A stretch of DNA of 64,000 nucleotides from a virus (IMGVR_UViG_3300043960_000133:1-64000); one strand, 5' to 3'. Positions 7,996-46,619 are shown, counted from the first letter of the stretch. A program made the numbers and translations. Notes: generated by a model not told the origin, from the sequence alone.

Positions 7996-8435
7996 AAAAG
8001 GAAACAGAAGAAAAGCGTATGGAAGCCAAGGCGTACCTGGAACAGGCACGGAACATCAACATACAGATAGACAGCAAGCTGGAGCAGGTATCGTCTTTGC
8101 GGCAGCTGGCTATCAAGGTGTCATCGACACTCAGCCCGGTGCCGCTAAGCGGGACACCCAATCCGCACCGTCTGGAAGAAACCATCGCCCGTATGATGGA
8201 TATGGAACAGGAAGTGGATGAAGCCATCGACGTCCTGGTCGAACTCAAGGCAGACATCATGAAGGCTGTCAGCCGAGTGCCAGATGCCCGGGAACGGGTC
8301 GTCTTGGAACTCCGCTACTTGGCCTTTAAAGACTGGGCATCCATTGCCGATACTCTCGGACTTCATATCCGCCAGGTGTACCGGCTGCATGACGAAGCCC
8401 TGAAACACATCGAGATTCCTGGCGAATGTCACTGA
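7992..8435 (+). CDS. RinA/ArpU-like late transcriptional activator
   Basis: Last gene of replication module; C-terminal sigma-region-4-like HTH (ELRYLAFKDWASIADTLGLHIRQVYRLHDEAL). Confidence 0.72.
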   Translation: MKKETEEKRMEAKAYLEQARNINIQIDSKLEQVSSLRQLAIKVSSTLSPVPLSGTPNPHRLEETIARMMDMEQEVDEAIDVLVELKADIMKAVSRVPDARERVVLELRYLAFKDWASIADTLGLHIRQVYRLHDEALKHIEIPGECH

Positions 8436-8488
8436 ATGTCACTAAAGCAGCACTTGATGTCACAGGCTTCTGTAAGATATACTATAAT
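8424..8488 (+). promoter_or_regulatory. Putative late promoter of outer phage with activator boxes
   Basis: Tandem GAATGTCACT x2 (8424-8443), related GATGTCACA (8456-8464), TATAAT at 8483-8488; position after rinA-like gene. Confidence 0.55.
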
Positions 8489-8504
8489 CAGCAAGAAAAG
8501 AATG

Positions 8505-8539
8505 AAGGACCGAGGCTTGAACGCCATCGGTCCTTTTTT
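8505..8539 (+). terminator. Terminator/attenuator hairpin just downstream of late promoter
   Basis: AAGGACCGA...TCGGTCCTT followed by T run. Confidence 0.6.
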
Positions 8540-8540
8540 G

Positions 8541-8559
8541 ATGCCGGGCATGATGTAAA
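8541..8559 (+). repeat. attL core of inner prophage
   Basis: ATGCCGGGCATGATGTAAA matches ATGCCGGAGATGATGTAAA at 46601-46619. Confidence 0.8.
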
Positions 8560-8613
8560 CGGAAATCCGGAAACCCGCGTCCAGTCTAGATTTATAGACC
8601 TGAAAACCCATGA

Positions 8614-8646
8614 AATTGGGCTGGAATTGGGCTGGAATTGGGCAGA
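8614..8646 (+). repeat. Integrase arm-type repeats (left)
   Basis: AATTGGGCTGG x2 + AATTGGGCAGA, 11-bp period; same unit at 46465-46486. Confidence 0.7.
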
Positions 8647-8656
8647 AAAATTCCAT

Positions 8657-8690
8657 AAAAATACCCCGTGTATATTATGCACGGGGTTTT
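8657..8690 (-). terminator. Bidirectional terminator-like hairpin
   Basis: AAAAAT-ACCCCGTG...CACGGGGT-TTT. Confidence 0.6.
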
Positions 8691-8762
8691 AATTTTTATG
8701 CAAAATGGGAAAACGCAGGAAAAACAGGAAAATCCCCGCACCATAAGGCACGGGGATAGGAA

Positions 8763-8966
8763 TTACTGGAAATCGGCAACGGCATCGAGGTATCGGGCTA
8801 TTTCTTCCAGATGTTTTGCACGGTCAGTAAGGTATAGAGCCTCGAATCGCAGGATTTCCTCCTGTTCTTCTTTGGTTTTGGCCTTTGCATAGTCGTTGGC
8901 AAAGGCTTCCATGACCTTTGCTGTGTTGTGCAGGTTGTCGACGAGTTGACCTTGGATCTTCTTCAT
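8763..8966 (-). CDS. Orphan 67-aa helical protein between attL and integrase
   Basis: Strong SD AAGGAGG 9 nt before ATG at 8966; own promoter-like motif and downstream terminator. Confidence 0.65.
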   Translation of the reverse strand: MKKIQGQLVDNLHNTAKVMEAFANDYAKAKTKEEQEEILRFEALYLTDRAKHLEEIARYLDAVADFQ

Positions 8967-8985
8967 GGTTATCATCCTCCTTCAC

Positions 8986-9019
8986 TAGTAATAGGACAGT
9001 AGGATGATAGTTAAGTACC
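8986..9019 (-). promoter_or_regulatory. Second copy of GGTACTTAAC-N10-CTGTCCT-N3-ACTA motif
   Basis: Minus strand reads GGTACTTAAC TATCATCCTA CTGTCCT ATT ACTA, then SD of 8763-8966. Confidence 0.55.
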
Positions 9020-9160
9020 GCTTTTCACATTTTCTCCAATGCCTTTAAACAAAGAATACCCGTAAAGCCAGGTGTTTCTTAACTCTACGGGCTTTTTGCG
9101 TTTGTAGTAACAGTCTGTCAATGCCATACAATGGGTTAAAATGGGAATCCGTGGGGAAAA

Positions 9161-10339
9161 TCAGCGTTCCATGAGTTCGGCAAATTTTTCCGCCGCCCGG
9201 CGTTTCATCCGTTTGGTCACGTGCAGATATATTTTTCGAGTGGTGGTATCGTCAGAGTGGCCCAGGCGCTCCATAATATCCACCAGGTCAACGCCCGCCT
9301 CGGCCAAAAGCGATGCGTGGGTGTGTCTAAAAATATGAGGATGGACGCGACAAGGCAACGGCGGTTTTAATGCTGCCTGGATATGATCAATATGGTTTTG
9401 TACGCTTCTCTGGGTTATAGGATACCCAGGATGCAGCGGGGCCGTAAAAACAAACCCGGCACGGCTGCCTTCGGGATAGTGCCATAATTCCCCAAACGTA
9501 AACCGGCGCGACGTTGCCTCCAGGCGGTATTTTTTGAGTTCCGTGACTAGCGGGGTGGGCAATGATAAAATCCGTGCTGACGTCCGCGTTTTTGGCGGCA
9601 AAAGCTGGTAAGCGTCGTAACGGTTGCCAGGATTATACAGCGTTTTGGTGACTTTGAGCGTCGCGGCGTCCAGATCAATGTCCTCCCATGTCAGGGCAAG
9701 GGCTTCCCCAATGCGTAGGCCCGTATAGGCCAGCAGCATAAAAAGCGCGGTATAATCGCCATACTGGGTGTGCCGCCGGGATTCGTCCAGGAAACGTTGC
9801 AGATCAGCCTTTTCCAGGTATTGCGGTACGTCCGCCTCTGGGTCAATGATTTTCCGGGACGGGCGGGGCGGCGATGCAAACTCCGTGGGATCGTTGTATA
9901 TCAGCTCAAATTCCCGGGCCTTTTTAAAAATCATTTTTGCCGTTGCATGGACGCCGCAGATCGTGTTGGGCTGCAACTTGTCTTTGAGGTCAAGTAAAAA
10001 CATCTGGTAATCCCGTTTGGTTATCTGCTGCAAAGGGATTTTTGCAAAATAACGATTTAACCAGGCTAGATTATGCTCCCGTATCCTGACCGTTGAGATC
10101 TTTACCTGCTGGCTGTAGATTTTTAACCAGTCGGCGGCAAAGGCTTCAAAAGTAATCGCGGATCCGGGTACATACTGCTGCTTCTTGACCGATTCCTGGA
10201 TTTCCCGTAACGCCGCCTCCGCGTCTTTGCGGCGCTGGAAGCCGAACCGGGATACGCGCTTGCGCTTTCCCGTTGCCGGATCAAGGCCAATGACGGTGCG
10301 GAAGCCCCAGGTGCCATTGGGCGAATGGATGATTTCCAT
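9161..10339 (-). CDS. int: Tyrosine integrase
   Basis: N-terminal arm-binding GKRKRVSRFGF, LAYTGLRIGEALAL, HPHIFRHTHAS, ERLGH, catalytic Y in TRKIYLHV. Confidence 0.95.
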   Translation of the reverse strand: MEIIHSPNGTWGFRTVIGLDPATGKRKRVSRFGFQRRKDAEAALREIQESVKKQQYVPGSAITFEAFAADWLKIYSQQVKISTVRIREHNLAWLNRYFAKIPLQQITKRDYQMFLLDLKDKLQPNTICGVHATAKMIFKKAREFELIYNDPTEFASPPRPSRKIIDPEADVPQYLEKADLQRFLDESRRHTQYGDYTALFMLLAYTGLRIGEALALTWEDIDLDAATLKVTKTLYNPGNRYDAYQLLPPKTRTSARILSLPTPLVTELKKYRLEATSRRFTFGELWHYPEGSRAGFVFTAPLHPGYPITQRSVQNHIDHIQAALKPPLPCRVHPHIFRHTHASLLAEAGVDLVDIMERLGHSDDTTTRKIYLHVTKRMKRRAAEKFAELMER

Positions 10340-10997: not shown

Positions 10998-11609
10998 TTA
11001 CTTAATAACAGATTGTTTTAGCACGGCAAGGCCTAAACAGCGGAAATCCCTGCAATTATCAGAGTTAAAAACCATGGGCGCATATTTTGGGTTTTCTGAT
11101 ACCAGCATGACGCCGGTATCAGTTTTGTAAAATCGTTTTAAACATACACGTTCGCCGTCGATTTCAAAACAGCCAATCTGCCCGACCTCTACTTCCGGCT
11201 GCTGTTTAATAAAAACAATGTCGCCATCGTTGATACCGGCGTTGACCATAGAATCGCCGGATACCGTAATGCAAAAATCTACTTTATAACGATTATCCAC
11301 ATCATAATACGGCGTATCCTGGTTAATATCTTCCAGCGGTGCGCCCGCTGCTGCATACCCCAACATGGGAACGCGTTTAAAATTAACAGACGTCAGGCCC
11401 GCCTGCATGGGTACGTCTAATCCCATTAACCAGGCCGGGTTTACGTTTAACGCTTTAGCCATTAAATATATTTTGTCTTGCTTAGGCACTACTTTTCCGT
11501 GATAATACTGAGCAATACCAGATGTACCTATTCCGGTCAATCTAGACAACTCTGCTTGTGTCATATCGCGGATTTCAAGTGCTTTCTTTAATCGTTCCGC
11601 AGTGCTCAT
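10998..11609 (-). CDS. cI: CI-like repressor (XRE HTH + S24 peptidase)
   Basis: RLKKALEIRDMTQAELSRLTGI HTH; AAG cleavage site; catalytic GDSM and K in CLKRF. Confidence 0.92.
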   Translation of the reverse strand: MSTAERLKKALEIRDMTQAELSRLTGIGTSGIAQYYHGKVVPKQDKIYLMAKALNVNPAWLMGLDVPMQAGLTSVNFKRVPMLGYAAAGAPLEDINQDTPYYDVDNRYKVDFCITVSGDSMVNAGINDGDIVFIKQQPEVEVGQIGCFEIDGERVCLKRFYKTDTGVMLVSENPKYAPMVFNSDNCRDFRCLGLAVLKQSVIK

Positions 11610-11632
11610 TCCTTCACCTTCTTTCCTTAGTA

Positions 11633-11731
11633 TTATACAATTTCTTGAGCAAAAGTTCAAGAAATTTAAATTTATCTATTGATTTTTTGAGTAAAAAGTC
11701 GTATTATTAAGTTGCTCAAGAAATTGAGTAA
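11633..11731. promoter_or_regulatory. cI/cro switch with two 20-bp operators
   Basis: TTGCTCAAGAAATTGTATAA (minus, 11633-11652) and TTGCTCAAGAAATTGAGTAA (11712-11731) in divergent intergenic region. Confidence 0.65.
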
Positions 11732-13818: not shown

Positions 13819-14352
13819 ATGCTTGAATCTGACTACCTGGATTTTACCGCCCCCGTACCGGCTGAAAATCGGGAGCACTGGAAGCCGGAAAACGACGACC
13901 AGGCGAACTGGTGCCTGGAAAAAATTTCCGAGGCAAAAATGGAGATCATGGACGCCCGGGCGTTTTACGAGGCAAAGAAGCGGCAGCTGGACCAATGGCT
14001 GGCAAACACCATTGCGCCGTACAACCGGGACTATGAACATTTCGAAGCCCTGCTGGCCGGGTATGCAGAGGAAGCCCTGGCCGGAAAGAAAAAACGGACC
14101 ATTTCCTTGCCCGGCGGAAAATTTGGGTTCCGGAAGGTACCGGCGAAAATCGACCGTGACGAAACCGCCCTGCTGGAATTTGCCGAAACCAGTGCGCCGG
14201 AATACGTAAAGGTGAAAAAGTCTGTTGATTGGGCGGCTTTAAAAAAGACCTGCAAGGCGGATGGGGATCATATGGTCACGGCGGACGGGGAAATCGTTCC
14301 TGGCGTGACCGTGACCGAACAAGCGGACAAGTTTATTTGTGAGGTGGTTTAA
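13819..14352 (+). CDS. gam: Mu Gam-like host-nuclease inhibitor
   Basis: Coiled coil then KKRTISLPGGKFGFRK...YVKVKKSVDWAALKK. Confidence 0.75.
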   Translation: MLESDYLDFTAPVPAENREHWKPENDDQANWCLEKISEAKMEIMDARAFYEAKKRQLDQWLANTIAPYNRDYEHFEALLAGYAEEALAGKKKRTISLPGGKFGFRKVPAKIDRDETALLEFAETSAPEYVKVKKSVDWAALKKTCKADGDHMVTADGEIVPGVTVTEQADKFICEVV

Positions 14353-15006
14353 ATGGGTATGCCTGTTTTAATTTTGGGGGCAAGCGGCAGCGGGAAATCC
14401 GCCAGCCTGAGAAATTTTGAACCTGATGAAATCGGGATTTTTAACGTTGCAGGTAAACCGCTGCCGTTCCGGAAACGGCTGCCGATGTTTAACAACGCGG
14501 GTTATAAAGAAATCGAAGCCGCGTTGAAGCGCCCGAAACTGAGAACCTACGTTATCGAGGATTCCCAGTATCTTATGGCCTTTTTCCTTTTTGACCATGT
14601 GAAAGATATGGGATACGGCAAATTTACGCAATGCGCCGTTGATTTCCGGAACCTGATTGATTTCATTGTCCGCGAGACGCCGCCGGATGTGATCGTCTAC
14701 CTGCTGCACCATACAGAGCGAGACGACAACGGGTTTATCAAGGCCAAAACGTCCGGCAAGATGCTGGACAATCAGCTGACGGTGGAGGGGCTGTTTTCCA
14801 TCGTGCTGCTGGCCGAAACAGACGGTAAAAACCATTGGTTTACCACCCAGAGCGACGGGTTCACACCGGCGAAGTCCCCCATGGGGCTGTTTCCTGAAAA
14901 GATCGAGAACGACCTGAAAAAGGTGGACACGGAAATCCGCGAGTATTACGAAATGAAACCGATTAAGGATGAAGTGAAAGGAGAACCAGAAAATGCAAAA
15001 GGTTGA
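14353..15006 (+). CDS. AAA_24 / Sak4-like ATPase (recombination)
   Basis: Walker A GASGSGKS, VIEDSQYL; followed by SSB-like gene. Confidence 0.75.
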   Translation: MGMPVLILGASGSGKSASLRNFEPDEIGIFNVAGKPLPFRKRLPMFNNAGYKEIEAALKRPKLRTYVIEDSQYLMAFFLFDHVKDMGYGKFTQCAVDFRNLIDFIVRETPPDVIVYLLHHTERDDNGFIKAKTSGKMLDNQLTVEGLFSIVLLAETDGKNHWFTTQSDGFTPAKSPMGLFPEKIENDLKKVDTEIREYYEMKPIKDEVKGEPENAKG

Positions 15007-15568
15007 TTGGAATAACGTGAATGAATCCACGAACGGGGGCAATCGCCCGCCCGTTGGCGGCTACGTGCTGACCATCATCAACGCCACGGAAAAACCGGAA
15101 AAACAGTATTTCCAAATCGAATGGGACTACAACGAGGGCGAATGGGCCGGGCATAATCGTAAGATCGCAACGGAAAACAATTGGGGATTGCCGCGGTTGT
15201 TCCGGAGCTACAAGCCCGCCGCCCTGGGGATGCTGAAACACTTCCTGATCGCATTGGAAAAATCCAACCGCGGCTGGACCATGGACCGGTGGAACAGTTT
15301 GCCAGACGCGCAGCAGGCACCTGCCCTGAACGGCTTGATTTTCGGGGCGGTGATCGGGGAAGAGGAGTACATCAATAAAGACGGTAAACTCAAAGTGCGG
15401 CAATACATCGCTGATACGTTGCCCGCAGCTGATATTCGTGCCGGGAAATTTGAGGTTCCAGCCCTGAAAAAGCTGAAAGGAAACGACAGCAGAACACCCG
15501 CCTCCGCTGCTGAAATCCCGGCAACAACCGCCCCCGTCGAGACGGGCGTTGAAGAATGTCCGTTTTAA
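14993..15568 (+). CDS. Probable phage ssDNA-binding protein
   Basis: PPVGGYVLTII...GAVIGEEEY, short acidic tail ending CPF; context. Confidence 0.6.
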   Translation: MQKVDWNNVNESTNGGNRPPVGGYVLTIINATEKPEKQYFQIEWDYNEGEWAGHNRKIATENNWGLPRLFRSYKPAALGMLKHFLIALEKSNRGWTMDRWNSLPDAQQAPALNGLIFGAVIGEEEYINKDGKLKVRQYIADTLPAADIRAGKFEVPALKKLKGNDSRTPASAAEIPATTAPVETGVEECPF

Positions 15569-18144
15569 GCTATGAGGAAATCCTAGGGAAATTAAACAAC
15601 GTCCATAAACGCGGCGGCGCCCTGGTTGCGCAGTGCCCAGTGTGCGGTGACGAAGACCATCTGTACATCAACCGGGACGGGGATAAAACGCTGGCATTTT
15701 GTCATAAATGCCACGCGTCCCTCCCGGCGGTGTTAAAGGCCCTGGATGTGGGCGGGGAACCGCCTGCACCCATTGTGCCGTCAAAGCCAAAGGACCACGG
15801 GCGGCGGGTGGAACGTATTGTTTACACCTACCGGGACCCGGACGGAAAAGAAGCATATTGCAAAATCCGGGAAAAATTCGCGGATGGGCATAAAAATTTT
15901 AGTTTTTTATATACCGGGCCGGACGGAACGGTTGTTTATAAAAAGCCAAAACCCTGCAATAACCTGTACAATCTGGACAGGCTGACGGCGGCAAAGAAAA
16001 CCGAAACTCTGTACATTGTGGAGGGCGAGAAATGCGCCGATGCAATGACCAACGCTGGATTCCTTGCCACCAGCACCAACACAGGGGCAGAAAGTCCGAA
16101 TTTATCAGAAATGGACCGTAAGGCCGTCGAGAAATTTGCCAGGAAGGTTGTTATCCCGGACAACGACGGGCCGGGGGCTGAGTATGGCAAAGCGTGGGAA
16201 GCGCGCGGGGCAAAGGTCCTGCCGTTGCCGGAAATCTGGCCGGAGTGCCCGGTGAAAGGCGACGTTGCCGATTACCTGGAACGCGGGGGCGACCCGGAAA
16301 AAATCCGCGGGTATAAATTCCCAACGGTGGAGTTTTCCGAGGACTATTTCCAAAGCCTGGATCGTGCGGACCTGATTTCTGAGGATTTCCTTTTAAAACT
16401 GATTCAGATTGACGACCCGGTGCAGCAGCAGCGGGCGGAGAGCCTGGCCACGTTCCGGGCGTCCGATCTATCCATCAAGCGTGAGTTTTGCAAAAACCTG
16501 CAAGCGGCCAGAATCAAGCTGGCACAGGAGCGCAAGGGAAACGAAAACGTTACCAATTTTACCGGACAACCGTTGGCGTTGCGGTGTGGTGACTGGATCG
16601 CGGATGATGAAGGTATCCGGCGCATGACCGCAAAGGGCAACAACGGAGATTTTACCTATCAGTGGGCCTCCAGAATCCCCACGCTGCCTACGGGCATTTT
16701 GGTAAACGCGGAAACGGGCGAGGAGCGTATCCGTCTTGATTTTTATAAGGCCGGGAAGTGGTCCAGCGTCACGGCCGACAGGTCAGATGTGGCCAATAAA
16801 AACCGTATCGTCAACCTGGCAAATAATGGCCTGGAGGTCACGACGGACAACGCACAGTATCTGGTTAAATATATCAGCGAGTGTGTAACAGAAAACCCGG
16901 CGGATATGCCACGAGAGACGTTTATCGACCATTTCGGCTGGACTGAGGACGGCGGTTTTGCCCCGTATATGGACGGACTGATCATCGACGCCGGACCGAC
17001 CGGCGATGCCCTGGTTAATGCAATCACACAGAAGGGCACACTGGACGAATGGCTCAAGATCGTGCGACCGTTGATGGACAACATTTACCTGCGTTTGACC
17101 GTTGCCGCGAGCCTGGCCGCGCCCCTGCTGGAAATCATCAAAGGGCTTCCCTACGTATTTCATCTATGGGGCGGCACCGGCAGCGGAAAAACGGTTGGTA
17201 TCATGGTGGCAGCCAGCGTGTGGGGAAACCCGCAATTCGGCGCGATGGTCCGGACCATGAACATGACGGACAACGCCCTAGTAGGCATTGCGTCCACGTT
17301 GCGAAACATCCCGTTTTTCGGCGACGAACTACAGACCATCAAAGACCGTTTTAACGGCTATGACCGCCTGTTATACCGTATCACGGAAAAAACGGGCCGG
17401 GCGCGCATGACCGCCGACCGGCGGGTGGAGAAGCCGGAAACCTGGAACACTGGATTTATTTTTACCGGTGAAGAACCCGTGACCGGCGAAAATTCCGGTG
17501 GCGGCGTAAAAAACCGCGTGATTGAGATCGAATGCGACGGGCCGGTGGTTGAGCATGGTAACCAGGTTGTACGGGCAATCAATGAGCATTACGGGACGTT
17601 AGGCCCGGAATACATCAAGAAAGCCCTGCGGGTTGACGTCCGCGCTGCCTACGACATGACGTTCCAGGAGCTGATGAAAACCGGAACGACGGACAAACAG
17701 GCAATGACCATGGCGCTGCTGATGGTAGCAGATGATATTTTCCGGATTTACTTTTTAAATTCGGAAATCCCTGGGCTGACGGTTAAAGACGTTGCTCCGT
17801 TCCTCTTGAGTAAAAAGCAGGTTGATATTTCAGAGCGTGCCTATAGCGCGGTGATTGACTGGATCGCCGAAAATGCGGACAAATTTTACGTTGCCCACGA
17901 GGACGATGCGGAACACCGGGACTGCGACGGCCGTATCTGGGGTGGACGGACTGGAAACGAGGTGAGTATTAACAGATCCGTGCTAATGCGTTTTATGGCC
18001 GACGAAGGATTTAATTTTACCGCGGTTAAGAAAAAATGGGCAGCAACGGGGAAAATCGTTGCAAGGCCAGACGGGAGGGTGCTATGGACTAAATCAATTT
18101 GCGGCGTTAAATCGTCGTACGTGGTTTTGGTGACTGGCAAGTAG
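15556..18144 (+). CDS. Zn-finger/TOPRIM primase fused to DUF927-type helicase
   Basis: CPVC...CHKC zinc finger; TOPRIM IVEGEKCAD, IPDNDGPG; Walker A GGTGSGKT; FGDELQ. Confidence 0.85.
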   Translation: MSVLSYEEILGKLNNVHKRGGALVAQCPVCGDEDHLYINRDGDKTLAFCHKCHASLPAVLKALDVGGEPPAPIVPSKPKDHGRRVERIVYTYRDPDGKEAYCKIREKFADGHKNFSFLYTGPDGTVVYKKPKPCNNLYNLDRLTAAKKTETLYIVEGEKCADAMTNAGFLATSTNTGAESPNLSEMDRKAVEKFARKVVIPDNDGPGAEYGKAWEARGAKVLPLPEIWPECPVKGDVADYLERGGDPEKIRGYKFPTVEFSEDYFQSLDRADLISEDFLLKLIQIDDPVQQQRAESLATFRASDLSIKREFCKNLQAARIKLAQERKGNENVTNFTGQPLALRCGDWIADDEGIRRMTAKGNNGDFTYQWASRIPTLPTGILVNAETGEERIRLDFYKAGKWSSVTADRSDVANKNRIVNLANNGLEVTTDNAQYLVKYISECVTENPADMPRETFIDHFGWTEDGGFAPYMDGLIIDAGPTGDALVNAITQKGTLDEWLKIVRPLMDNIYLRLTVAASLAAPLLEIIKGLPYVFHLWGGTGSGKTVGIMVAASVWGNPQFGAMVRTMNMTDNALVGIASTLRNIPFFGDELQTIKDRFNGYDRLLYRITEKTGRARMTADRRVEKPETWNTGFIFTGEEPVTGENSGGGVKNRVIEIECDGPVVEHGNQVVRAINEHYGTLGPEYIKKALRVDVRAAYDMTFQELMKTGTTDKQAMTMALLMVADDIFRIYFLNSEIPGLTVKDVAPFLLSKKQVDISERAYSAVIDWIAENADKFYVAHEDDAEHRDCDGRIWGGRTGNEVSINRSVLMRFMADEGFNFTAVKKKWAATGKIVARPDGRVLWTKSICGVKSSYVVLVTGK

Positions 18145-18164
18145 TTGCGTGAAAATTCTGAAAG

Positions 18165-18439
18165 GGTAGAAATGGTAGAACAAGGGTAGAAATTTCAAAA
18201 CCCGGAAACCCGCACCACGCCTATATTATAATACTATTTCTACCATTCTACCATTTCTACCATATATATATAGATATATAGGGAAATTCCGTTTTTCCGG
18301 AAGTAAAGGCAATCCCGGATATATTTATATATTACGCTACCCCCTCTACGAAAAAAGGGTAGAACGGTAGAAAAGTGCCATAGAGCTAGGCAGGATGCGG
18401 GTTTGCGGTTCTACCGTGAGGGGGTGCAAAATGGTAGAA
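18165..18439. repeat. Candidate origin of inner phage: ten GGTAGAA/TTCTACC units around AT-rich cores
   Basis: Forward 18165, 18174, 18185, 18358, 18366, 18433; reverse 18238, 18246, 18255, 18409; directly after primase. Confidence 0.6.
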
Positions 18440-18660
18440 TTTTGGGAGAAACAAGAAAGTTGGTGTAAAAAGTGGACGAGATGCGCGAAATGCTGGACGC
18501 GGACGAAGAACGTATCGACGACCTGGAACAGCAAAACGAAGCGTTGCAGGACCGTATCGAGGAGCTGGAGTTTGAAAACCACAAGCTGGGGTCAACGCCA
18601 GGACAACAAGATTATCCTGGCGTTGACCCGGACGCTGCACAAGGAAAGGGAGGCGCGGGG

Positions 18661-18912
18661 ATGATTGACCAAAAGGCTTTATGCCACGCCAAAACTGCCA
18701 TACACTATGCGCAAAAAATCGCGCGTGGGCTGAATTGGAAACTAAAATACCGGCACGGGTACAACCTGAGATTAAATGACCCTGTGCAACGGCTTTTTGA
18801 TGCAGAAGATGAAATTGCTAATGCCATTGATCGTTTACGATTGGCGCGGTATCGCTTGCTGGGTGCTATAGAACAGGAGTTAAAAAATGAGCAAGGAAAC
18901 AGCGATAATTAA
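18661..18912 (+). CDS. Hypothetical protein (may start at GTG 18472)
   Basis: SD AAGGGAGG before ATG 18661. Confidence 0.45.
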   Translation: MIDQKALCHAKTAIHYAQKIARGLNWKLKYRHGYNLRLNDPVQRLFDAEDEIANAIDRLRLARYRLLGAIEQELKNEQGNSDN

Positions 18913-19141
18913 TATTCGCGGGGCATGGGTTGATATGCGGAAATCCATTAACTGTTTTGCCAATCTGATGAAACTGAACTTAAATGTTCTGGACGCGTTA
19001 CCGGAACAGGCAGAATCCGTGGCGGAAATCTGCATTAAAAATTACGACACGCTCATTGCAGAGATGCGTAAGCAGCGCCGGAAATTGGTCCGGGCGCGGT
19101 ACGAGTTAAGAAAGGAACATGAAAATGAGAAAAACAACTAA
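18887..19141 (+). CDS. Hypothetical protein
   Basis: SD AGGAG; overlapping operon arrangement. Confidence 0.5.
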   Translation: MSKETAIINIRGAWVDMRKSINCFANLMKLNLNVLDALPEQAESVAEICIKNYDTLIAEMRKQRRKLVRARYELRKEHENEKNN

Positions 19142-19685: not shown

Positions 19686-19688
19686 ACA

Positions 19689-19868
19689 ATGGATATTATC
19701 TATAAAGCGTTGGTAATTTTTGCCACAATCGACCTGGCCATTTTTGCCGTAGAGGAAGGCCGGAGAATTTACCGGCGGTATCAGGCCAAGAAAGACCTGG
19801 AAGCGTTTGCAGAGTGGGCAAAGAAGCGCCTGGAAGAACGGCAGGAGGACAAGAAGGAAGAAGGCTAA
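19689..19868 (+). CDS. 59-aa membrane-anchored hypothetical protein (not in track)
   Basis: SD GGGAGG; MDIIYKALVIFATIDLAIFAVEEG... Confidence 0.45.
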   Translation: MDIIYKALVIFATIDLAIFAVEEGRRIYRRYQAKKDLEAFAEWAKKRLEERQEDKKEEG

Positions 19869-19871
19869 CAG

Positions 19872-32037: not shown

Positions 32038-32042
32038 TTTAA

Positions 32043-32543: not shown

Positions 32544-32549
32544 CTGAAC

Positions 32550-32575
32550 AGGGCCGCCACCGCGGCCCTTCTTTA
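32550..32575 (+). terminator. Terminator after major tail protein
   Basis: AGGGCCGC-CACC-GCGGCCCT followed by TCTTT. Confidence 0.55.
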
Positions 32576-32593
32576 TTATTATGAGGTGAGAAC

Positions 32594-33007: not shown

Positions 33008-33018
33008 GAGGTGGGGAA

Positions 33019-35766: not shown

Positions 35767-36335
35767 TGGCACTAAAAAAATTCCCCCAGGAAATTAAGCA
35801 CCTGACATGGAACAGCAAATTTAAACAAAAGTGGAATACACAGGTGCAAACGTCCGGATCCGGAATGGTCCGGACGTTGACCAATCAGCTGTATCCGCAA
35901 TGGACCATCACAGAAACGTTCGGTCTGCTGGACGACGATACCGCGAATAAGCTAATGGCATTTATTGCCAGCGTCAAGGGCGGGTACGAGCCGTTTTTGT
36001 GGCTGGACCACACGTTAAACCGGGAAACCGGGCGGGCGTTGCCAGTTATCGTGCCGGGAAAATACCAGGCGGTTTGGAGCCTGGATGGATACGTGGAACC
36101 GGCGGACTACATCGAGGATGTGACCGTCTACGTGGACGGCAAAAAGCAGACAAGCGGTTACAGCGTGTCCGGCGGCGTCATCAGCTTTTCCACGGCACCG
36201 GCAACGGGGGCCGTGGTGACAGCTGATTATACGTACTGGTTTAAAGTGCGTTTTTCCGACGATGGGGGAGAGTTAACTAGAGTTTTCGAAAACGTTAACA
36301 ATTCCAGTAGCTTTAAAATGGATGTGGTACGATGA
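35760..36335 (+). CDS. Distal tail protein (DUF2460, GTA-like)
   Basis: KWNTQVQTSGSG, FIASVKGGYEPFLW, VTADYTYWFKVRF. Confidence 0.8.
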   Translation: MVMALKKFPQEIKHLTWNSKFKQKWNTQVQTSGSGMVRTLTNQLYPQWTITETFGLLDDDTANKLMAFIASVKGGYEPFLWLDHTLNRETGRALPVIVPGKYQAVWSLDGYVEPADYIEDVTVYVDGKKQTSGYSVSGGVISFSTAPATGAVVTADYTYWFKVRFSDDGGELTRVFENVNNSSSFKMDVVR

Positions 36336-36913
36336 AACAAGTAGACGCCAGTCTGACGGCCTATTTAAACACACAAAAACAAATACAGAGTTGTGATTTA
36401 TACGATATTATCCTGGCTAATGGCAATCACTATTACTATACGGATGCCGATATTGACATCAACAACGGCGGGACGGTTTACCAGCACGGTAAACTGCTGT
36501 TTAAACGGCAGCAGATTAAATTAAATTCCACCCTGACCGTTGACACCCTGAGCGTGACCATTTACGCCGGAAAAACCGATATGATCGAGAGCAAATCCGT
36601 GATGAAGGCCGCGCTAGACGGGACCATGGACCGGGCGCGTCTGCACCTTAAACGGTGCTTTTTCCGTGACGGTGCCGTCGTGGGCACCGTGGACCTGTTC
36701 GCGGGGAAAATCGAAATCAAAAACGCGGGCGGTTTGCAGCTGCAACTGTCCATCAAGGCGGAAACGAGCGGCCTGAACATGAATTTCCCCATCCGGAAAT
36801 ATTACCCCCAAGGGAGCTTTTCCACCGGTTCCGGCGGCGTCGTCACGGCGTCAAGCACGGACAGTAGCGCGGTGATCGCGCCGTACATTCCGCGCAAGGA
36901 GGTGCTGCTATGA
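36332..36913 (+). CDS. Baseplate hub-like protein (DUF2163-like)
   Basis: DLYDIILANG..YYYTDADIDI, VDTLSVTI, LFAGKI. Confidence 0.75.
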   Translation: MKQVDASLTAYLNTQKQIQSCDLYDIILANGNHYYYTDADIDINNGGTVYQHGKLLFKRQQIKLNSTLTVDTLSVTIYAGKTDMIESKSVMKAALDGTMDRARLHLKRCFFRDGAVVGTVDLFAGKIEIKNAGGLQLQLSIKAETSGLNMNFPIRKYYPQGSFSTGSGGVVTASSTDSSAVIAPYIPRKEVLL

Positions 36914-37386
36914 GCGAGCAAGGCGACCGAATTGCGGCTGCTGCTTTAACCTGGTTGGGGACGCCCCACGTAAACGAGGGCAAGGCCAAAGGGCACGGAG
37001 TGGATTGTGGGATGCTGCTAATTTGCAGCCTGGAGGACGCCGGACTGGTAAAACGCGGCGAAATCAAGGTTAACCATTACTCCAACATGTGGCACCTGAG
37101 CCACGGGGAAGAGTGGTTTAAATCCATTGTGGAGCGGTATTGCGACAAAGTGGATACCATGGAGCGGGGCGACTTTTTACTGTATCAGTATGGCCGGTGC
37201 GTCAGTCACGGCGGCGTTTATATGGGCAACGGCGTTGTATGCCATGCCCGTGTGGAGCAGGGCGTTATCCTGTCATCTGTAAATGACGTTGATTTTTTGG
37301 ACGCCCGCGGAAACAGCCGCCTCCGGGGGATTTATCGGTTTAGCATTAAAAAACGAGACGAGGTGAGAGCGAATGGGGCTGTTTAG
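36910..37386 (+). CDS. NlpC/P60 tail-associated peptidase
   Basis: WLGTPH..G..KGHGVDCGMLL, HGGVY, VCHA. Confidence 0.88.
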   Translation: MSEQGDRIAAAALTWLGTPHVNEGKAKGHGVDCGMLLICSLEDAGLVKRGEIKVNHYSNMWHLSHGEEWFKSIVERYCDKVDTMERGDFLLYQYGRCVSHGGVYMGNGVVCHARVEQGVILSSVNDVDFLDARGNSRLRGIYRFSIKKRDEVRANGAV

Positions 37387-40300
37387 AGGGCGGACCGTTA
37401 CCACGCGGGCCAATAAAATCAGTGATTTTACCGTTGCAACGGCCAGTTACGGCGGAGCTGTCCCAGTGGTCTACGGCACCAGCCGCCTGGCTGGCAACGT
37501 GATTTACTACGACGATTTTACTGCCCACGAACATAAAGAGACACAACGGACCGGGAAGGGCGGTAAAAGCAAATCCGTGTCCATTACGTACACGTATACC
37601 GTTGCCGTTATCCTGGGTTTATGTGAGGGGCCTATCCACAGTATCGGCAAAGTGTGGTTAGGCAAGGACGTATACCAATATCCCTCCGATCAGATCGGTA
37701 TGACGCTATACGACGGGAGCCAAAAAGCCCCCTGGCCGTACGTAAAGGGCAAGCACCCCGACAAAGCGTTGACCTATGAAAACCTGGCTTATATGGCGGG
37801 CGTTATCGACCTGGGCGACAGCGGGTCTATGCCTGATTATAATTTTGAGGTCCGCGGGATGTTGACTGACACCGGCGACGGGACCGATGCAAACCCGGCG
37901 GATGTAATCCGGGACATCCTGGATAAAGTAGGATTATCCAGCGTCGAGATTATCGGCCTGGACAACTACCGCAAGTATTGCCGTGAAGCGGATTTACTGA
38001 TTTCCAGCCCGACGGACACCACAGAGGCAAAGGCTGCACACGATATTATCAACGAGCTTATGACGCTAACCAATGCGTATATGTTTTGGAGCAATAATAA
38101 ATTTAAAATCGTTTGCAAGGCTGACCGCCCCGTGGGCAGCTGGACGCCAGACACCACCATCCAATACGACTTAACCGCGGACGACTTTTTGGAGAGCAAC
38201 GGCGCCCTTGTGACATGCCAGCGCAAGGACAGTTCAGAAATTTATAATCGTTTTCTGGTAGAATTTATTAGCCGGAAAAACAGCTACGAAACTGAAACCG
38301 TGGCTTATGAGCTGAAAGACGACATTGCGGAATACGGACTCCGTCAGGCCAGCAGTACAACGGCGCACTGGTTTTATACGAAGGAGCGGGCCGTAAAGGT
38401 TGCTGAACAGCTGGCAAGGGACGCCCTGTACGGCCGCAACAAATTTACGTTTAAACTTGACTGGGCGTTTTGCCGCCTGGAAGTCGGCGACCAGGTGACA
38501 CTGACGGACAGCGCCCTGGGGCTGGATAAAACGCCGGTAATGATTGACAGCGTGACCGAAAACACGGACGGGACGTTGACGTTTACCGCCATCAGCCGCC
38601 CGCCGATGCAAGCAAGCAAACCTGCTTATGATGTGCACGAGGGCGACCGGCCATACATCGACTATAACGCCGACGCGCCGGACACAGACACGCCGCTTAT
38701 CATGCAGCCGCCCGCGGAACTGACTACAAGCGGCCTGGAAGTATGGATTGGAGCAAAGGGCAAGGGCGACCTATGGGGCGGTTGTGAGGTCTACGTTGCC
38801 GATGATGGGACCAACTACAGGGCGGCCGGAACCATTGCTAGCAGCGCCCGGGTGGGAACCCTGGCCAAAAGCGTCAAGGCCGCGGACACCAGCGTGGAAG
38901 TGTCTTGCAACGGCACGTTTTTGTCCGGCACCGCCCAGGATGCAGAGCGGGGCAACACCCTCTGCTGGGTAGATGGGGAGTGTCTGAGCTATCAGGGCGC
39001 CACGTTGCTAGACAACGGGCATTGGAGGCTTGACGGCTGTATCCGCGGACAGCATACCACCACAGCCGCGGCTCATGACGCCGGGGCACAGTTTGCGCGC
39101 CTGGATGCAGGTCTGCTCCGTATCCCGTTTTTGTCTGAGGACGTAGGCAAAAAGGTGTATTTAAAATTTGTGTCCTTTAACGTTTTCGGGGCAGGGGTGC
39201 AAGACCTGGCCAGCGTAAAGGCGTACGAATACACCATCAAAAAATACCATATCCCGGCCGTAAAAAACGTACGGGCTTACAACCGCTACCGGCACCTGGC
39301 TGACGGCGTTAGCAGATACGACGTAATGGTCCAGTGGGACCCGCCGGATTTAGAGAGTTACGCCGCCGGGCAGGTGTGGTACAGGACCAACGCCGGGCAG
39401 GTGCAGGATTTAACGGCAGTTAACGGCGTACCGGCAAGCGAGCTGGGCTATTACGGTAAATGGACTTTTGGTGGGCAAGGCAAAAACGAGGTTGTAATCC
39501 CCCAGGCTGTAGTGGGGGACACCTACGAAATCGCAGTTACGACCGTTGATAAATGGGCCGCAAGTACGGATCCCGACCTTGCCCCAAAGGTCAAGATTAC
39601 CGTTGCCATGCGCACCATGGTACCCAACACGCCGGACGGCTTTACCCTGGCATTTGGCAAGACAGCAACGGCCGCGTGGAATGAAGTCACGAATACGGAC
39701 GTCATGTACTACGAAATCCGGCGGGATAACGCACCGGGAGCTGAAACCGCTGGCCTGCTAGCACGAACGAGCGGAATGTCTGCAACCGTTGCTCTAAACG
39801 CCCGGTCTGGGCGGCTGTATCTGTTCGCCCGAAACGCCCTGGGTAAATACAGCGTTCCGGCGGTGCTGGATTACAACAAGACGGCACCGGGAAAACCAGA
39901 TGCACCGACGCTTAAGAACACTATGACCGGATTTTCCGTTGCCGGGCAAGGTATCCCGGCGGACGCCATCGGGATGATGGTATACATCAACGACGGCGAC
40001 GCCGTAAAGACGGAAAACGCGGTCATGAGCTATAACTGCGAGCCGGGTGTCTATGATGTAGCTATTGCATACTATGATATGTTTGGAGCCGGGGGGCGGT
40101 CCGAAACGACCCGGACAACGGTAAAAATCATCATTGACGAAACCAACATCAAGGACGAGGCTATCAGCCTAGCGAAGGTTGATAAGACCATCCAGGACGC
40201 CGTAAAAGAAGCCCAAGGAATATCCGGCAAGGTTGCCGAAATCAAGCAGACCACGGACAGCATCCAAGCGACCGTTGCCGACGATAAAAAAGAGCTGGCC

Positions 40301-41476
40301 AGCCAGATTACGCAAAACAGCGATAAAATTACCAGCGTGGTTACTAACCTGGGAGACAGTGCAAAAGCGAAAGAAGCCTATAGCGCAATTGCCCAGATGC
40401 AAGATGATATTGCGTTAAGGGTTAAATCTGGGGAAGTTGTGTCCCAGATTAATCTGAGCAAAGAAGGCGTACAGATTGACGGCAAGCTGCTGCACGTAAC
40501 CGGGGAAACGGTGTTTGATAACAACGTCGTAACTAGTAAGATGCTACAAGCGGCCAACATTTCCCTGGAAGGCGCCCTGGCTATTACCGGCGGAAACGTT
40601 TTTCTCAACGAAGATGGTATGCAGGTTAAGCAGAGCAATGGCGAATCCATTATGTTTGACGGGAAAGGTATGACGTTTTTTGACGCGTCCGGTAACGCCT
40701 ACAACAGCGTCCGCCGTATGATTATCGGCACGGCAAAGCATAACCAGTACGTAAAATTCCCCGTGGCGTGGCCCGCCGCCCCGAAAGTCCTTGTAACCCC
40801 GCTGTCTGTAACCACAGCAGACAATAATAAAAGCGGGGCCATTATCCGTATCCACTGCCGGGCAACCGACGTAAGCACAAACGGTTTCCGGGTTATGTGT
40901 TATTCCGGGATAGACAACACAAGCTACTGGCAGAGCGTAAACACGGATTTAGGCTCTTTTTCCGGGGCAAGAGGGTATACTGACGACTCAATCCGTCAGA
41001 CGTTTTCGTGGACGCAAAATATTAGCGTGGACAGCCGGGCAAGACTTATCCGGCTGAACCTGTATTTTAGCGGTATTTGGCACGCCAAAGGTACGGGTAT
41101 TGGAATTGGGAAAAGCAGCAAGAACGACGCCCCCTTTACCCGTGTAACGGTAACGGCAGCGGGTAAAACCGTGCTGTCCGAAGATGTGGGCGGCACGGAC
41201 GGCGACTACTTTGATAACTGGAGCGGGCAGAGCGTCCAGACCTCCCAGTTTCAGATCCCGTCGGTAAGCACTATTACGGTAAATATCCAGTGGCGCCCTC
41301 GGGCTGACCACATGGGGAATAGCAACGATGCGGGAGATGTTGGAGATGGCAGATGTACCCTGCAGAGCATTGAAGGCATAATGCAGGGCGACGACTCTAC
41401 TCAAGTTATTGACAGTGACGGGACGGCCCTGTTTTTGGCAATCGACCAGTCCACTCAGAATTACTCAGTAAGCTAA
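37373..41476 (+). CDS. Tail tip/host-specificity protein (J-like, GTA megatron-like)
   Basis: YGGAVPVVYGTSRLAGNVIY, LCEGPI, FN3-like segments, coiled-coil C-terminal part. Confidence 0.85.
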   Translation: MGLFRGRTVTTRANKISDFTVATASYGGAVPVVYGTSRLAGNVIYYDDFTAHEHKETQRTGKGGKSKSVSITYTYTVAVILGLCEGPIHSIGKVWLGKDVYQYPSDQIGMTLYDGSQKAPWPYVKGKHPDKALTYENLAYMAGVIDLGDSGSMPDYNFEVRGMLTDTGDGTDANPADVIRDILDKVGLSSVEIIGLDNYRKYCREADLLISSPTDTTEAKAAHDIINELMTLTNAYMFWSNNKFKIVCKADRPVGSWTPDTTIQYDLTADDFLESNGALVTCQRKDSSEIYNRFLVEFISRKNSYETETVAYELKDDIAEYGLRQASSTTAHWFYTKERAVKVAEQLARDALYGRNKFTFKLDWAFCRLEVGDQVTLTDSALGLDKTPVMIDSVTENTDGTLTFTAISRPPMQASKPAYDVHEGDRPYIDYNADAPDTDTPLIMQPPAELTTSGLEVWIGAKGKGDLWGGCEVYVADDGTNYRAAGTIASSARVGTLAKSVKAADTSVEVSCNGTFLSGTAQDAERGNTLCWVDGECLSYQGATLLDNGHWRLDGCIRGQHTTTAAAHDAGAQFARLDAGLLRIPFLSEDVGKKVYLKFVSFNVFGAGVQDLASVKAYEYTIKKYHIPAVKNVRAYNRYRHLADGVSRYDVMVQWDPPDLESYAAGQVWYRTNAGQVQDLTAVNGVPASELGYYGKWTFGGQGKNEVVIPQAVVGDTYEIAVTTVDKWAASTDPDLAPKVKITVAMRTMVPNTPDGFTLAFGKTATAAWNEVTNTDVMYYEIRRDNAPGAETAGLLARTSGMSATVALNARSGRLYLFARNALGKYSVPAVLDYNKTAPGKPDAPTLKNTMTGFSVAGQGIPADAIGMMVYINDGDAVKTENAVMSYNCEPGVYDVAIAYYDMFGAGGRSETTRTTVKIIIDETNIKDEAISLAKVDKTIQDAVKEAQGISGKVAEIKQTTDSIQATVADDKKELASQITQNSDKITSVVTNLGDSAKAKEAYSAIAQMQDDIALRVKSGEVVSQINLSKEGVQIDGKLLHVTGETVFDNNVVTSKMLQAANISLEGALAITGGNVFLNEDGMQVKQSNGESIMFDGKGMTFFDASGNAYNSVRRMIIGTAKHNQYVKFPVAWPAAPKVLVTPLSVTTADNNKSGAIIRIHCRATDVSTNGFRVMCYSGIDNTSYWQSVNTDLGSFSGARGYTDDSIRQTFSWTQNISVDSRARLIRLNLYFSGIWHAKGTGIGIGKSSKNDAPFTRVTVTAAGKTVLSEDVGGTDGDYFDNWSGQSVQTSQFQIPSVSTITVNIQWRPRADHMGNSNDAGDVGDGRCTLQSIEGIMQGDDSTQVIDSDGTALFLAIDQSTQNYSVS

Positions 41477-44745: not shown

Positions 44746-44812
44746 TATACGTATAAAATTTTAAAAAATATACGTATAAACTCTTGTAATTTATACGTAT
44801 ATGTGGTACTAT
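44746..44812 (+). promoter_or_regulatory. Sigma-70 promoter overlapped by three TATACGTATA palindromes
   Basis: TTGTAA (44784)-17 bp-TGgTACTAT (-10 at 44807); palindromes at 44746, 44769, 44792. Confidence 0.75.
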
Positions 44813-44893
44813 ATAGTCACAGGGAAGAAGAAAAGCCCTGAAGAACTTGAGAACGGCACCGGAAAACGGAAGCCGTCAAAGGAGGACAAAACC

Positions 44894-45139
44894 ATGAAGG
44901 AAATCAAAGGATTGCAGGAAGCATGGGAAGAAATCAAAAGCTGCCCGAAGAGAAGAGATTGCTATTACGAAGTGTTTTTAAATCGGCAGACCGGAGAGGT
45001 TTCCGCCAACTTCCAGGTTTCCCTGGGGGCAAACAGCTGGGTCGAATACAAAAACAAAAACGTCGTCAAGGTTGGTGACTTTAACTGGCAGACAACTAAA
45101 TCCGAATTTATCCACGCGATCGACATCGTTGAAAAGTAA
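44894..45139 (+). CDS. Accessory hypothetical protein
   Basis: SD AAGGAGG; MKEIKGLQEAWEEIK... Confidence 0.6.
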   Translation: MKEIKGLQEAWEEIKSCPKRRDCYYEVFLNRQTGEVSANFQVSLGANSWVEYKNKNVVKVGDFNWQTTKSEFIHAIDIVEK

Positions 45140-45185
45140 CAAGGTGGGGCGAAAGCCCCACCACCATTTGAAAGGAGAGCAAGCC

Positions 45186-45686
45186 ATGGAAGTGAAAGAC
45201 CTTATCAAAAAGTACAACCTGCAAGCTGTCGAGAAAGACGGAAAAATGATGGTGCACACTAGGGCAAGGGTCCCGGCAAAAGACGTTGCAGCCATCAAAG
45301 AACACCGGGATGAAATCCTGAAAGAAATCCTGGATGCCAAAGAACAGGCAAGAAAGGCCTACGAAGAACGCCAGGCAAAGATTAACGCCATCCCTGGCCT
45401 GTCCGAAATTAAGGCTGAACTGGAAAAAGCTGCCGACTGGCGTAGACGGTTTAATGCCAGTTTTGAAACTGAGGACGGTGGCGGATGGGGTGTGGGGCCT
45501 AGACCTAACTATGATTTTGACGCAGCCTATAAAAAATACCCACAAGCCCACGCTTATCTGATCGCCGAACAGGAAGCCTATAAAGACAACTATGAACTGG
45601 CTGAAATTGGGCGGAAGGCGCTGGAAAAGGTCATCAACGGCCAACGGGAAGAAGCCGAATTTTGTGAAAAGCACATGTGGGACTAA
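45186..45686 (+). CDS. Accessory hypothetical protein
   Basis: SD GAAAGGAG; MEVKDLIKKYNL... Confidence 0.65.
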   Translation: MEVKDLIKKYNLQAVEKDGKMMVHTRARVPAKDVAAIKEHRDEILKEILDAKEQARKAYEERQAKINAIPGLSEIKAELEKAADWRRRFNASFETEDGGGWGVGPRPNYDFDAAYKKYPQAHAYLIAEQEAYKDNYELAEIGRKALEKVINGQREEAEFCEKHMWD

Positions 45687-45702
45687 ATGGGGGGTATAAA
45701 CC

Positions 45703-46062
45703 ATGAGTATCGACAAGAAATACGTTTTAGAAATGAAAAAGCTCGCAAGAGCGGAAAAATACAAAGATTTTTACAAATATTGCACAATGAGCGCCGGCGG
45801 CAGCGACATCGCCTCCCTCAGCTACCGGACCAGCGATCCTAAGGAAATCGGAGAAATCGCATTCGGCGAAGATGGCGATTACAAAGCCCATCTGATCGCC
45901 GGAGACACCGAGGTCCCCAGCCATTACAACCTGGTCTTTGATACGGAATCATCATGGTTGTGGGTTTACGATGACGATGGAAAGATTCTTGATCTGACTA
46001 ATGATGCGGGGTTCCAGATTTATCGGGCGGGGGAAATGGGCCTGCTGATCAGATTCAAATAA
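45703..46062 (+). CDS. Accessory hypothetical protein
   Basis: SD GGGGG; GSDIASL...FGEDGDY...YRAGEMG. Confidence 0.65.
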   Translation: MSIDKKYVLEMKKLARAEKYKDFYKYCTMSAGGSDIASLSYRTSDPKEIGEIAFGEDGDYKAHLIAGDTEVPSHYNLVFDTESSWLWVYDDDGKILDLTNDAGFQIYRAGEMGLLIRFK

Positions 46063-46076
46063 AGGAGCTTAAAATC

Positions 46077-46412
46077 ATGAAAAAAACCATATACGTGAAT
46101 GACCCATTAATCAAGCTGAACGAACAAACCACCAACGGCGGGTTTTCCCGCCGCCTGGGGGAAATCGTGGAGCGGTACGACATAATCATGAAATTAACGC
46201 CGGAGCCGCCAAAATTTTCCCCGGAAGAAATGCACGTTTTGGCCGAAGTCCTTGCTGGTGCAAAGATTTCAGCGGGCTTTATTTACTCCCTGGGGTTTGA
46301 GGTCCAGGACAGCGTCCTGGAAACGCCGGAAATCCGGGAAGCTCTTGCAAAAAAAATCGACGGCATGACAGCCGCGGAAAAAATAAAAATGATCGAGGTG
46401 TTTCTCAAATAA
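46077..46412 (+). CDS. Probable ribbon-helix-helix regulator
   Basis: N-terminal beta strand KKTIYVND then two helices (FSRRLGEIVERY); SD AAGGAG. Confidence 0.5.
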   Translation: MKKTIYVNDPLIKLNEQTTNGGFSRRLGEIVERYDIIMKLTPEPPKFSPEEMHVLAEVLAGAKISAGFIYSLGFEVQDSVLETPEIREALAKKIDGMTAAEKIKMIEVFLK

Positions 46413-46416
46413 AGCC

Positions 46417-46442
46417 AGCCGCCGGGTTGTCCGGCGGCTTTA
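46417..46442 (+). terminator. Terminator of accessory operon
   Basis: AGCCGCCGG-GTTGT-CCGGCGGCT followed by TTA. Confidence 0.6.
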
Positions 46443-46464
46443 TACATTGTTATGCATTTTGGCA

Positions 46465-46486
46465 AATTGGGCTGGGATTGGGCAAA
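46465..46486 (+). repeat. Integrase arm-type repeats (right)
   Basis: AATTGGGCTGG-GATTGGGCAAA, same unit as 8614-8646. Confidence 0.7.
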
Positions 46487-46600
46487 AATCCCGCAAAAAG
46501 TCCACACGAGCCAGACGTTTTCGAGAGACGAAACGACGGAAAACGGCGTATTTCCTAGCGTTCCGACGTTTTTCGTATTATCCCGATAGGACGTTCCGGC

Positions 46601-46619
46601 ATGCCGGAGATGATGTAAA
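46601..46619 (+). repeat. attR core of inner prophage; overlaps SD/start of outer hnh
   Basis: ATGCCGGAGATGATGTAAA; last A is the A of hnh ATG. Confidence 0.8.

Follow-up and report, generated by a model that had tools for sequence, protein, structure and literature searches.

A complete temperate siphophage nested between the late leader and the first late gene of a second prophage, probably through integration at a secondary site

Both the insertion of prophages into other prophages and the embedding of satellites in helper phages have been described before. In E. coli, prophages integrate into prophages at attB copies that are derived from the chromosome, carry flanking homology and occur widely in regions of effector genes (Nakamura et al. 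2021, PMC8112680). Helper-embedded satellites (HE-PICI) located in late genes of the helper delay helper late expression until they are excised (Tommasini, Mageeney & Williams 2023, PMC10111431). Late activators of the RinA/ArpU/LtrC type are established upstream of packaging operons (PMC3152322, PMC3753634), and the mycobacteriophage Bxb1 integrates at the 3' end of groEL1 via a large serine integrase, its lysogens being biofilm-defective (PMC1470463). The locus described here belongs to a provirus record of IMG/VR (IMGVR_UViG_3300043960_000133; 89,204 bp), the first 64 kb of which were analysed and are referred to as the window. It contains two phages, one inside the other, which are termed the inner and the outer phage in the following.

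A complete 38-kb temperate siphophage is nested in a myophage of approx 51 kb, where it separates the late regulator, late promoter and leader of the outer phage from hnh, the first gene of the late region. The insert is 38,060 bp long and is bounded by a 19-bp direct repeat, the two copies of which are identical at 17 of 19 positions (Table 1). The TATAAT of the outer late promoter lies 52 bp to the left of the left copy (attL), while the right copy (attR) holds the GGAG Shine-Dalgarno sequence of hnh (46606 to 46609) and ends with the A of the hnh start codon. The first-pass annotation had claimed this nesting at exactly this position, the overlap of attR with the hnh translation start, and a contractile tail for the outer and a non-contractile tail for the inner phage. 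Each of these claims was borne out, the nesting by junctions defined to the nucleotide and by outer relatives free of the insert, the tail types by a tail sheath gene in the outer phage and RcGTA-like (gene transfer agent) non-contractile tail genes in the inner one.

The outer phage without its insert was found in all relatives retrieved. A search with the regulator protein yielded 51 loci in IMG/VR (L015 to L065), none of which contains DNA of the inner phage. In 45 of them, homology passes from the att core region (window approx 8540 to 8559) to 46601 to 46619 with at most a few bases in between; the closest relatives continue at 46601 after 8559, with a 19-bp overlap that is the repeat itself. 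The six other loci carry a small intervening segment of approx 270 bp (15 bp in one). When the insert is removed, the restored 927-bp stretch of regulator, leader and hnh aligns in one piece with L015, L019 and L026 (98–99% identity), confirming the earlier statement that excision of the inner phage restores the usual order of regulator, promoter, hnh and terminase. The exact site of the window (ATGCCGGAGATGATGTAAATGCCC) is present in 14 loci, whereas 17 have the variant ATGCCGGAGATGATACGAATGCCA, in which the part corresponding to the core (…GATACGAATG) matches the attP core at 13/18 positions. Since the empty relatives carry the identical site, the AG version in attR is native outer sequence and the GC version in attL stems from the incoming attP.

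The outer native site reads …TTTTTTG-ATGCCGGAGATGATGTAA-ATGCCC… and comprises the last part of the late leader, the ribosome-binding sequence GGAG and the start codon of hnh. The attP of the inner phage was reconstructed from attL and attR as …GTTCCGGC-ATGCCGGGCATGATGTAA-ACGGAAA…, since the exact pattern of P arm, core and P' arm gave no match in IMG/VR. Its core ATGCCGGGCATGATGTAA and the outer site agree at 16/18 positions in two perfect blocks of 7 and 9 bp. The attL consists of the outer left flank and the phage GC, the attR of the phage left flank and the outer AG; this reciprocal exchange points to strand exchange inside the shared 7-bp ATGCCGG. Repeats of the AATTGGGCTGG type, candidate arm-type binding sites of the integrase, flank the core on both sides and are conserved in relatives.

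A AATTGGGCTGG arm repeat was also considered as the actual attachment site and was rejected, because the empty sites and the prophage ends in Acidaminococcus massiliensis place the junction at the 18/19-mer. In the 'linear' 34-kb contig L005 (IMGVR_UViG_3300029503_000003; integrase 94%), window position 8625 is joined to 46489 via the AATTGGGCTGG repeats (L005 7607 to 7633), so that approx 190 bp holding the att core are missing. This join is either a deletion that removed attP or an assembly collapse.

For this IMG/VR provirus, it was also considered that an assembler might have fused two separate prophages. Such a chimera is hardly credible, given that both junctions fall to the nucleotide on the integrase core, as they do in A. 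massiliensis, that attL and attR carry the reciprocal hybrid variants GC and AG, and that the identity common to both sites (7 + 10 bp) is too short to mislead an assembler twice.

The regular target of the inner integrase is indicated by its relatives, which were drawn from IMG/VR and GTDB genomes. Three of the IMG/VR proviruses (L003, L004 and L006) are trimmed before attR, which was therefore read from whole genomes. In A. massiliensis (integrase 96%), the two ends of the prophage carry the same 18-bp sequence, ATGCCCGGGATGATGTAA, without mismatch, and the att-to-att distance is 37.07 kb. On the left this sequence constitutes the end of the groEL reading frame (…GGGMPGMM-stop); on the right, a terminator-like hairpin with a T-run comes next, read as the host sequence downstream of groEL. 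Provirus L004 (integrase 93%) adjoins groEL likewise, and so does the relative in genome G071 (integrase 58%), the core of which, ATGCCGGGCATGATGTAA, is that of the window attL. A more distant relative in Sporomusa silvacetica (integrase 43%) is located 94 bp from the groEL stop codon. The homology of the proviruses of integrase relatives to the window ends at 8540/8541, exactly at the core. Because relatives at 96, 93, 58 and 43% are found at this gene with homology ending at the core, the groEL 3' end can be taken as the ancestral attB of this integrase family. In its normal reaction, the integrase would join attP to the final 18 bp of groEL in the host (ATGCCNGGNATGATGTAA, …MPGMM-stop), and the core copy brought in by the phage would rebuild the end of the gene.

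The first-pass annotation had proposed that a phage late leader serves the inner integrase as attB. An outcome that the same annotation had named as refuting this, insertion of homologous integrases at a host locus, was observed: they are found at groEL, and the proposal is thus not supported. The copy in the window departs from the groEL-associated group, being located at a 16/18 look-alike inside a prophage instead of beside groEL. A literature search for phages that attach at the 3' end of groEL gave only the unrelated serine-integrase case of Bxb1. The groEL 3' end is now defined as attachment site of a group of tyrosine-integrase phages in gut Negativicutes (Acidaminococcus, Sporomusa).

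With a 16/18 match to the attP core, the outer site might also be a piece of host groEL captured by the outer phage, so that integration effectively took place at the primary site. Secondary sites of phage λ match the core much less well. Chromosome-derived attB copies in prophages are a precedent for such a capture (PMC8112680). It is nevertheless very improbable here, as groEL homology does not extend beyond the 18-mer, which is bordered by the leader hairpin and T6 on the left and by hnh coding sequence on the right, and as the 18-mer is the ribosome-binding and start region of the outer family itself, occurring in graded variants (13/18 in the 17 relatives mentioned above). The locus also does not qualify as a chromosome-derived attB as defined for E. 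coli (PMC8112680), no other occupied sites being found in IMG/VR, in JGI metagenomes or among the 51 relatives. For lack of groEL similarity outside the core, and because the family's own ribosome-binding region shows graded variants, the outer site is, as judged from its sequence, a look-alike and not a captured fragment of groEL.

Look-alikes of the core are rare. Using the reversed pattern as chance baseline (0 to 1 match per genome), 2 to 5 sites with at most two mismatches to the 18-mer were counted per related genome. The AG-type 18-mer of the outer phage is itself among these sites, once in G071 and once in G089 (the latter examined at the level of the 18-mer). In G071 it is flanked by the outer-phage leader and hnh and is empty, while groEL of the same genome is occupied by a related prophage. 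Outside groEL, a further insertion was found in genome G078 (integrase 93%), where the prophage resides in an unrelated host gene (…AMMQ|GMLEN…; overlap ATGCAG, core match 15/18) and the groEL site is empty. In the left arm of this prophage, between int and attL, an IS66-like element of approx 2.6 kb is located (L121 393 to 2987; G078:C4 approx 1145590 to 1148190).

A second, identical P arm of G078 at a contig end (C1; L126/L141; IMGVR_UViG_2808606711_000002) is joined to the middle of a head-tail connector gene of an unrelated prophage, next to a Phage_HCP gene, with the pseudo-core ATGCTGGGGATGCTGGAT (13/18). The partner attL was searched for and not found, and this junction therefore remains a single-ended observation. 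A prophage has thus been hit at least one further time, at another site, in a sample too small to show a preference. A search with the P-arm pattern in 140 genomes of the family matched only G005 and G078, so that the survey of close relatives is not enlargeable with these data. Further nested junctions were not detected: beyond the window, the attL pattern was matched neither in IMG/VR nor in JGI metagenomes, and the attR pattern, searched in JGI metagenomes, had no match either (these searches may have masked the record of the window itself).

These data bear on the question whether the integrase has been selected for resident prophages, either to disarm a competitor or to establish a late switch that depends on excision. 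In favour of such targeting are the position of the insert exactly between late promoter/leader and first late gene, the G078 junction in an unrelated prophage, at its genes for head-tail connection and head completion, and the known embedding of satellites in helper late genes (PMC10111431). Such targeting is considered unlikely, since the integrase relatives at all four levels of identity use groEL, no further nested junctions were found, all 51 outer relatives are empty, the site in the outer-like prophage of G071 is empty beside a groEL-integrated relative, and the G078 junction is a lone contig end without partner attL. About equally unlikely is a related reading, that the integrase is promiscuous enough for resident prophages to recur as targets, the window and the G078 junction being two cases among the few placed insertions of the clade at ≥93%. 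If so, outer production would depend on inner excision, and the locus would represent a phage-on-phage switch, or the disarming of a competitor, by a full phage instead of a satellite.

The probable explanation is integration at a secondary site: a groEL-targeting phage inserted at a look-alike, in an accidental and reversible event and not as part of an evolved system. Phage λ resorts to secondary sites where the primary one is not available. With its 16/18 match to the attP core, the ribosome-binding region of the outer phage would have served the integrase as secondary attB. This reading is favoured because neither junction pattern recurs in the collections searched (attL in IMG/VR and JGI metagenomes, attR in JGI metagenomes). 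It is further supported by the integrase itself, one intact copy of which is present in the whole record, with catalytic, core-binding and arm-binding domains; arm motifs are found on both sides, and the direct core repeats coincide with the ends of the empty-site homology, as for a λ-type integrase.

Several points weigh against this explanation or against the consequences drawn from it. Both junctions are those of one assembled record, groEL of this host may be occupied or free, and the mapping of the crossover takes the absence of mismatch repair as given. Among the insertions of the integrase clade at ≥93%, the one in the window and the G078 contig-end junction lie in other prophages, which may point to more than chance. 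Any effect on late expression of the outer phage is deduced from the gene arrangement. Five promoter-like cassettes between hnh and terS would weaken a silencing of the rest of the late region; as they precede the terminase genes, these and the structural genes may not be fully silenced. Finally, the last inner gene is followed by a terminator that is weak on the plus strand, and read-through into the outer late genes is therefore possible.

The most direct consequence of secondary-site integration would be a separation of the outer late region from its control elements. The late promoter and leader would now face terminator hairpins on both strands in the left arm of the inner phage, while hnh and the ParB-methylase gene are located behind the last inner operon. 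It is a reasonable inference that these two genes are disconnected from the activator-dependent late promoter. The 89-kb composite is probably too large for the outer capsid. Precise excision by the integrase would regenerate a functional site, TTTTTTG-ATGCCGG(AG/GC)ATGATGTAA-ATG, and thereby restore the outer phage. Conservation of such an excision-switch arrangement was looked for with the junction patterns in IMG/VR and JGI metagenomes and among the 51 relatives, and was not found. If the insertion blocks outer production until excision, the locus offers a simple model for prophage interference in polylysogens. It is in any case a cleanly resolved natural example of an intact temperate phage interrupting another one, and relatives allow both parental sites, attP and a phage-borne pseudo-attB, to be rebuilt. 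Being one event of known mechanism, it is of modest general importance.

Table 1. Features of the outer and inner phage and of the attachment sites in the window
Feature	Position	Strand	Remarks
Outer PolA	537-2582		
Outer D5-type primase	3937-6180		
Outer SNF2 helicase	6625-7995		
Outer late regulator, ArpU/RinA-like, sigma-70 region-4-like	7992-8435	+	147 aa; last early gene; phrog_36 1e-20; phrog_248 'transcriptional activator' 1.5e-9
Outer late promoter region (putative)	8426-8488	+	ATGTCAC boxes at 8426, 8436 and 8457 (span 8426-8463); GTCACA-18-TATAAT 8459-8488
Leader hairpin followed by T6, intrinsic-terminator-like	8504-8539	+	-23.5 kcal/mol, z -3.9; 0/200 shuffles equally stable
attL core ATGCCGG-GC-ATGATGTAAA	8541-8559		Repeat copy ATGCCGGGCATGATGTAAA; outer-relative homology stops at 8559, integrase-relative provirus homology at 8540/8541
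P' arm, three tandem AATTGGGC(T/A)G(G/A) repeats	8614-8646		Candidate arm-type integrase sites; kept in L003, L004 and A. massiliensis
Back-to-back terminator-like hairpins, inner left end	8663-8687; 8757-8732	+; -	
Inner heterobivalent tyrosine integrase	9161-10339	-	PF00589 E 1.3e-25, residues 174-376; Arm-DNA-bind_4 (PF14657) 4.5e-8; Phage_int_SAM_3
Inner LexA/CI-like repressor	10998-11660	-	Helix-turn-helix and S24 peptidase; PF00717 1e-22, HTH_3 2.5e-10
Inner replication/recombination module	13819-22106	+	Gam, Sak4, primase-helicase, helicase
Inner packaging, head and tail genes	24848-35766	+	HNH, TerL, portal, major capsid protein (MCP), major tail protein, tape measure
Inner RcGTA-type distal tail	35760-41476	+	DUF2460, Gp84_N hub, NlpC/P60, Phage-tail_3 + Rcc01698_C; phrog_1101 7e-149
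GC-rich hairpin 3' of last inner gene	46417-46439		Terminator listed on - strand only; weak + strand T-run, tail TTTATACA
P arm, copies of AATTGGGCTGG repeat	46465-46486		Candidate arm-type sites
attR core ATGCCGG-AG-ATGATGTAAA	46601-46619		Repeat copy ATGCCGGAGATGATGTAAA; same as empty site in 14 relatives
Outer hnh	46619-46978	+	PF01844; phrog_144 4e-36
Outer ParB-N6/N4 methylase	47309-48577	+	PF01555, PF02195
Five repeated promoter-like cassettes, 52-80 nt	48572-52094	+	TTGCTA-N17-GATATA type; precede amidoligase, gamma-glutamyl cyclotransferase (GGCT) and small genes
Outer TerS/TerL	52485-54553	+	phrog_83 2e-57; phrog_9 2e-194
Outer portal gene	55292-59032	+	Apparently split by group II intron
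Outer MCP	59743-60933	+	
Outer tail sheath	62421-63503	+	

The nested element has the complete gene set of a temperate siphophage (Table 1), with Acidaminococcus-type Negativicutes as hosts. Megablast against GenBank phages gave no match for the inner phage and a single 207-bp match for the left part of the outer phage. Directly 5' of the inner packaging genes, a 146-aa protein is encoded (23866 to 24306), for which Shiga-toxin A-subunit models score approx 17 bits (cut-offs >600; E approx 0.002) and no PHROG match was obtained; this similarity is most likely noise.

The outer regulator is encoded directly 5' of the packaging operon, as is typical of RinA/ArpU-type activators, and the order of boxes, TATAAT, leader and hnh is kept in the relatives. 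Its match to the ArpU model TIGR01637 (E 4e-7, 30.2 bits) is under the cut-off of 43.1 bits; a sigma-70 ECF model is matched at 6e-7, and no Pfam match was obtained at E ≤ 0.001. The 33-nt late-promoter motif has a single occurrence in the window and in the whole record, and 100 shuffles gave none. The boxes, TATAAT, leader hairpin and T-run are kept throughout the outer-phage relatives. The hairpin, which ends 1 nt before the att core, is present in all 51 of them with varying stem sequence. Late transcripts starting at the putative promoter would need to pass this conserved, terminator-like structure before reaching hnh, which suggests control by attenuation or antitermination and not by simple activation. 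Further downstream, the last three of the promoter-like cassettes have a common leader, and the cassette motif differs from the late-promoter motif.

Several observations were made on the site and its surroundings in the outer family. In the sub-lineage of the window, the site (46601 to 46621) can be read as a mini open reading frame, ATG CCG GAG ATG ATG TAA (MPEMM-stop), adjoining the hnh ATG, while in the 17 relatives with the ATACGA variant the upstream ATG stays in frame with hnh. Through the same change of two to three bases that creates the stop of the mini open reading frame, the site comes to match the groEL-type core at 16/18 instead of 13/18 positions. Nine outer relatives (L056 to L064, approx 3380 to 4856 each) carry an insertion of approx 1.47 kb with an open reading frame of 354 aa at the 3' end of the regulator gene (equivalent to window 8398/8409). 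Five IMG/VR contigs of 87 to 110 kb (L019 to L023 with L051 to L055) contain two outer-type regulator-hnh regions each, approx 46.6 kb apart, with regulators of 96% and 81% identity to that of the window, which suggests tandem or polylysogenic outer-phage relatives.

The N-terminal part of the outer portal protein (55292 to 56110) covers positions 2 to 203 of the 321 positions of the Phage_portal profile. It is followed by an open reading frame for a reverse transcriptase/maturase (56642 to 58441; phrog_1423 3e-108), by domain V/VI of a group II intron (Rfam RF00029 Intron_gpII, 58450 to 58546, 57 bits) and by an open reading frame 3' of the reverse transcriptase gene (58457 to 59032). Beyond the window (record 76985 to 89204), the lysis genes are followed by a cargo block and two adjacent large serine recombinases (85957 to 87651 and 87636 to 89204; L115/L116), presumably the integration module of the outer phage.

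Compared to known systems, the locus resembles integration of λ-type phages at secondary sites in its heterobivalent integrase, the arm repeats in attP, a target with the overlap and part of the core, and hybrid attL and attR. It is distinguished from the typical λ-type case by a primary site at the groEL 3' end of Negativicutes and by a secondary site in the late leader and ribosome-binding site of a prophage with an unusually good match of 16/18. As in E. coli (PMC8112680), a full prophage is located between att repeats in another prophage and was inserted by site-specific recombination; in contrast to E. coli, flanking homology to groEL is absent, only one occurrence is known and the late promoter is split from the first late gene. 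With HE-PICI the inner phage has in common that an integrative element occupies the late region of a prophage, where the interrupted late function would await excision. Unlike these satellites, it has a full virion set (TerL, portal, MCP, tail, tape measure and distal tail). Furthermore, the HE-PICI integrase clade hits prophage late genes repeatedly, whereas for the integrase studied here four relatives at groEL, one insertion in a host gene and one additional prophage junction were found. The 3' end of a groEL gene as attachment site is shared with Bxb1, from which the inner phage differs in its tyrosine integrase and in an attP carrying a replacement …MPGMM-stop end. The outer phage corresponds to RinA/ArpU/LtrC systems in its small sigma-r4-like regulator directly 5' of the HNH/terS operon and in an activator-type promoter downstream of the regulator; it deviates from them in a score below the curated ArpU threshold, a diderm Negativicute host and the terminator-like hairpin between promoter and hnh. 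The nested phages are thus a new instance combining known elements and not a new kind of system.

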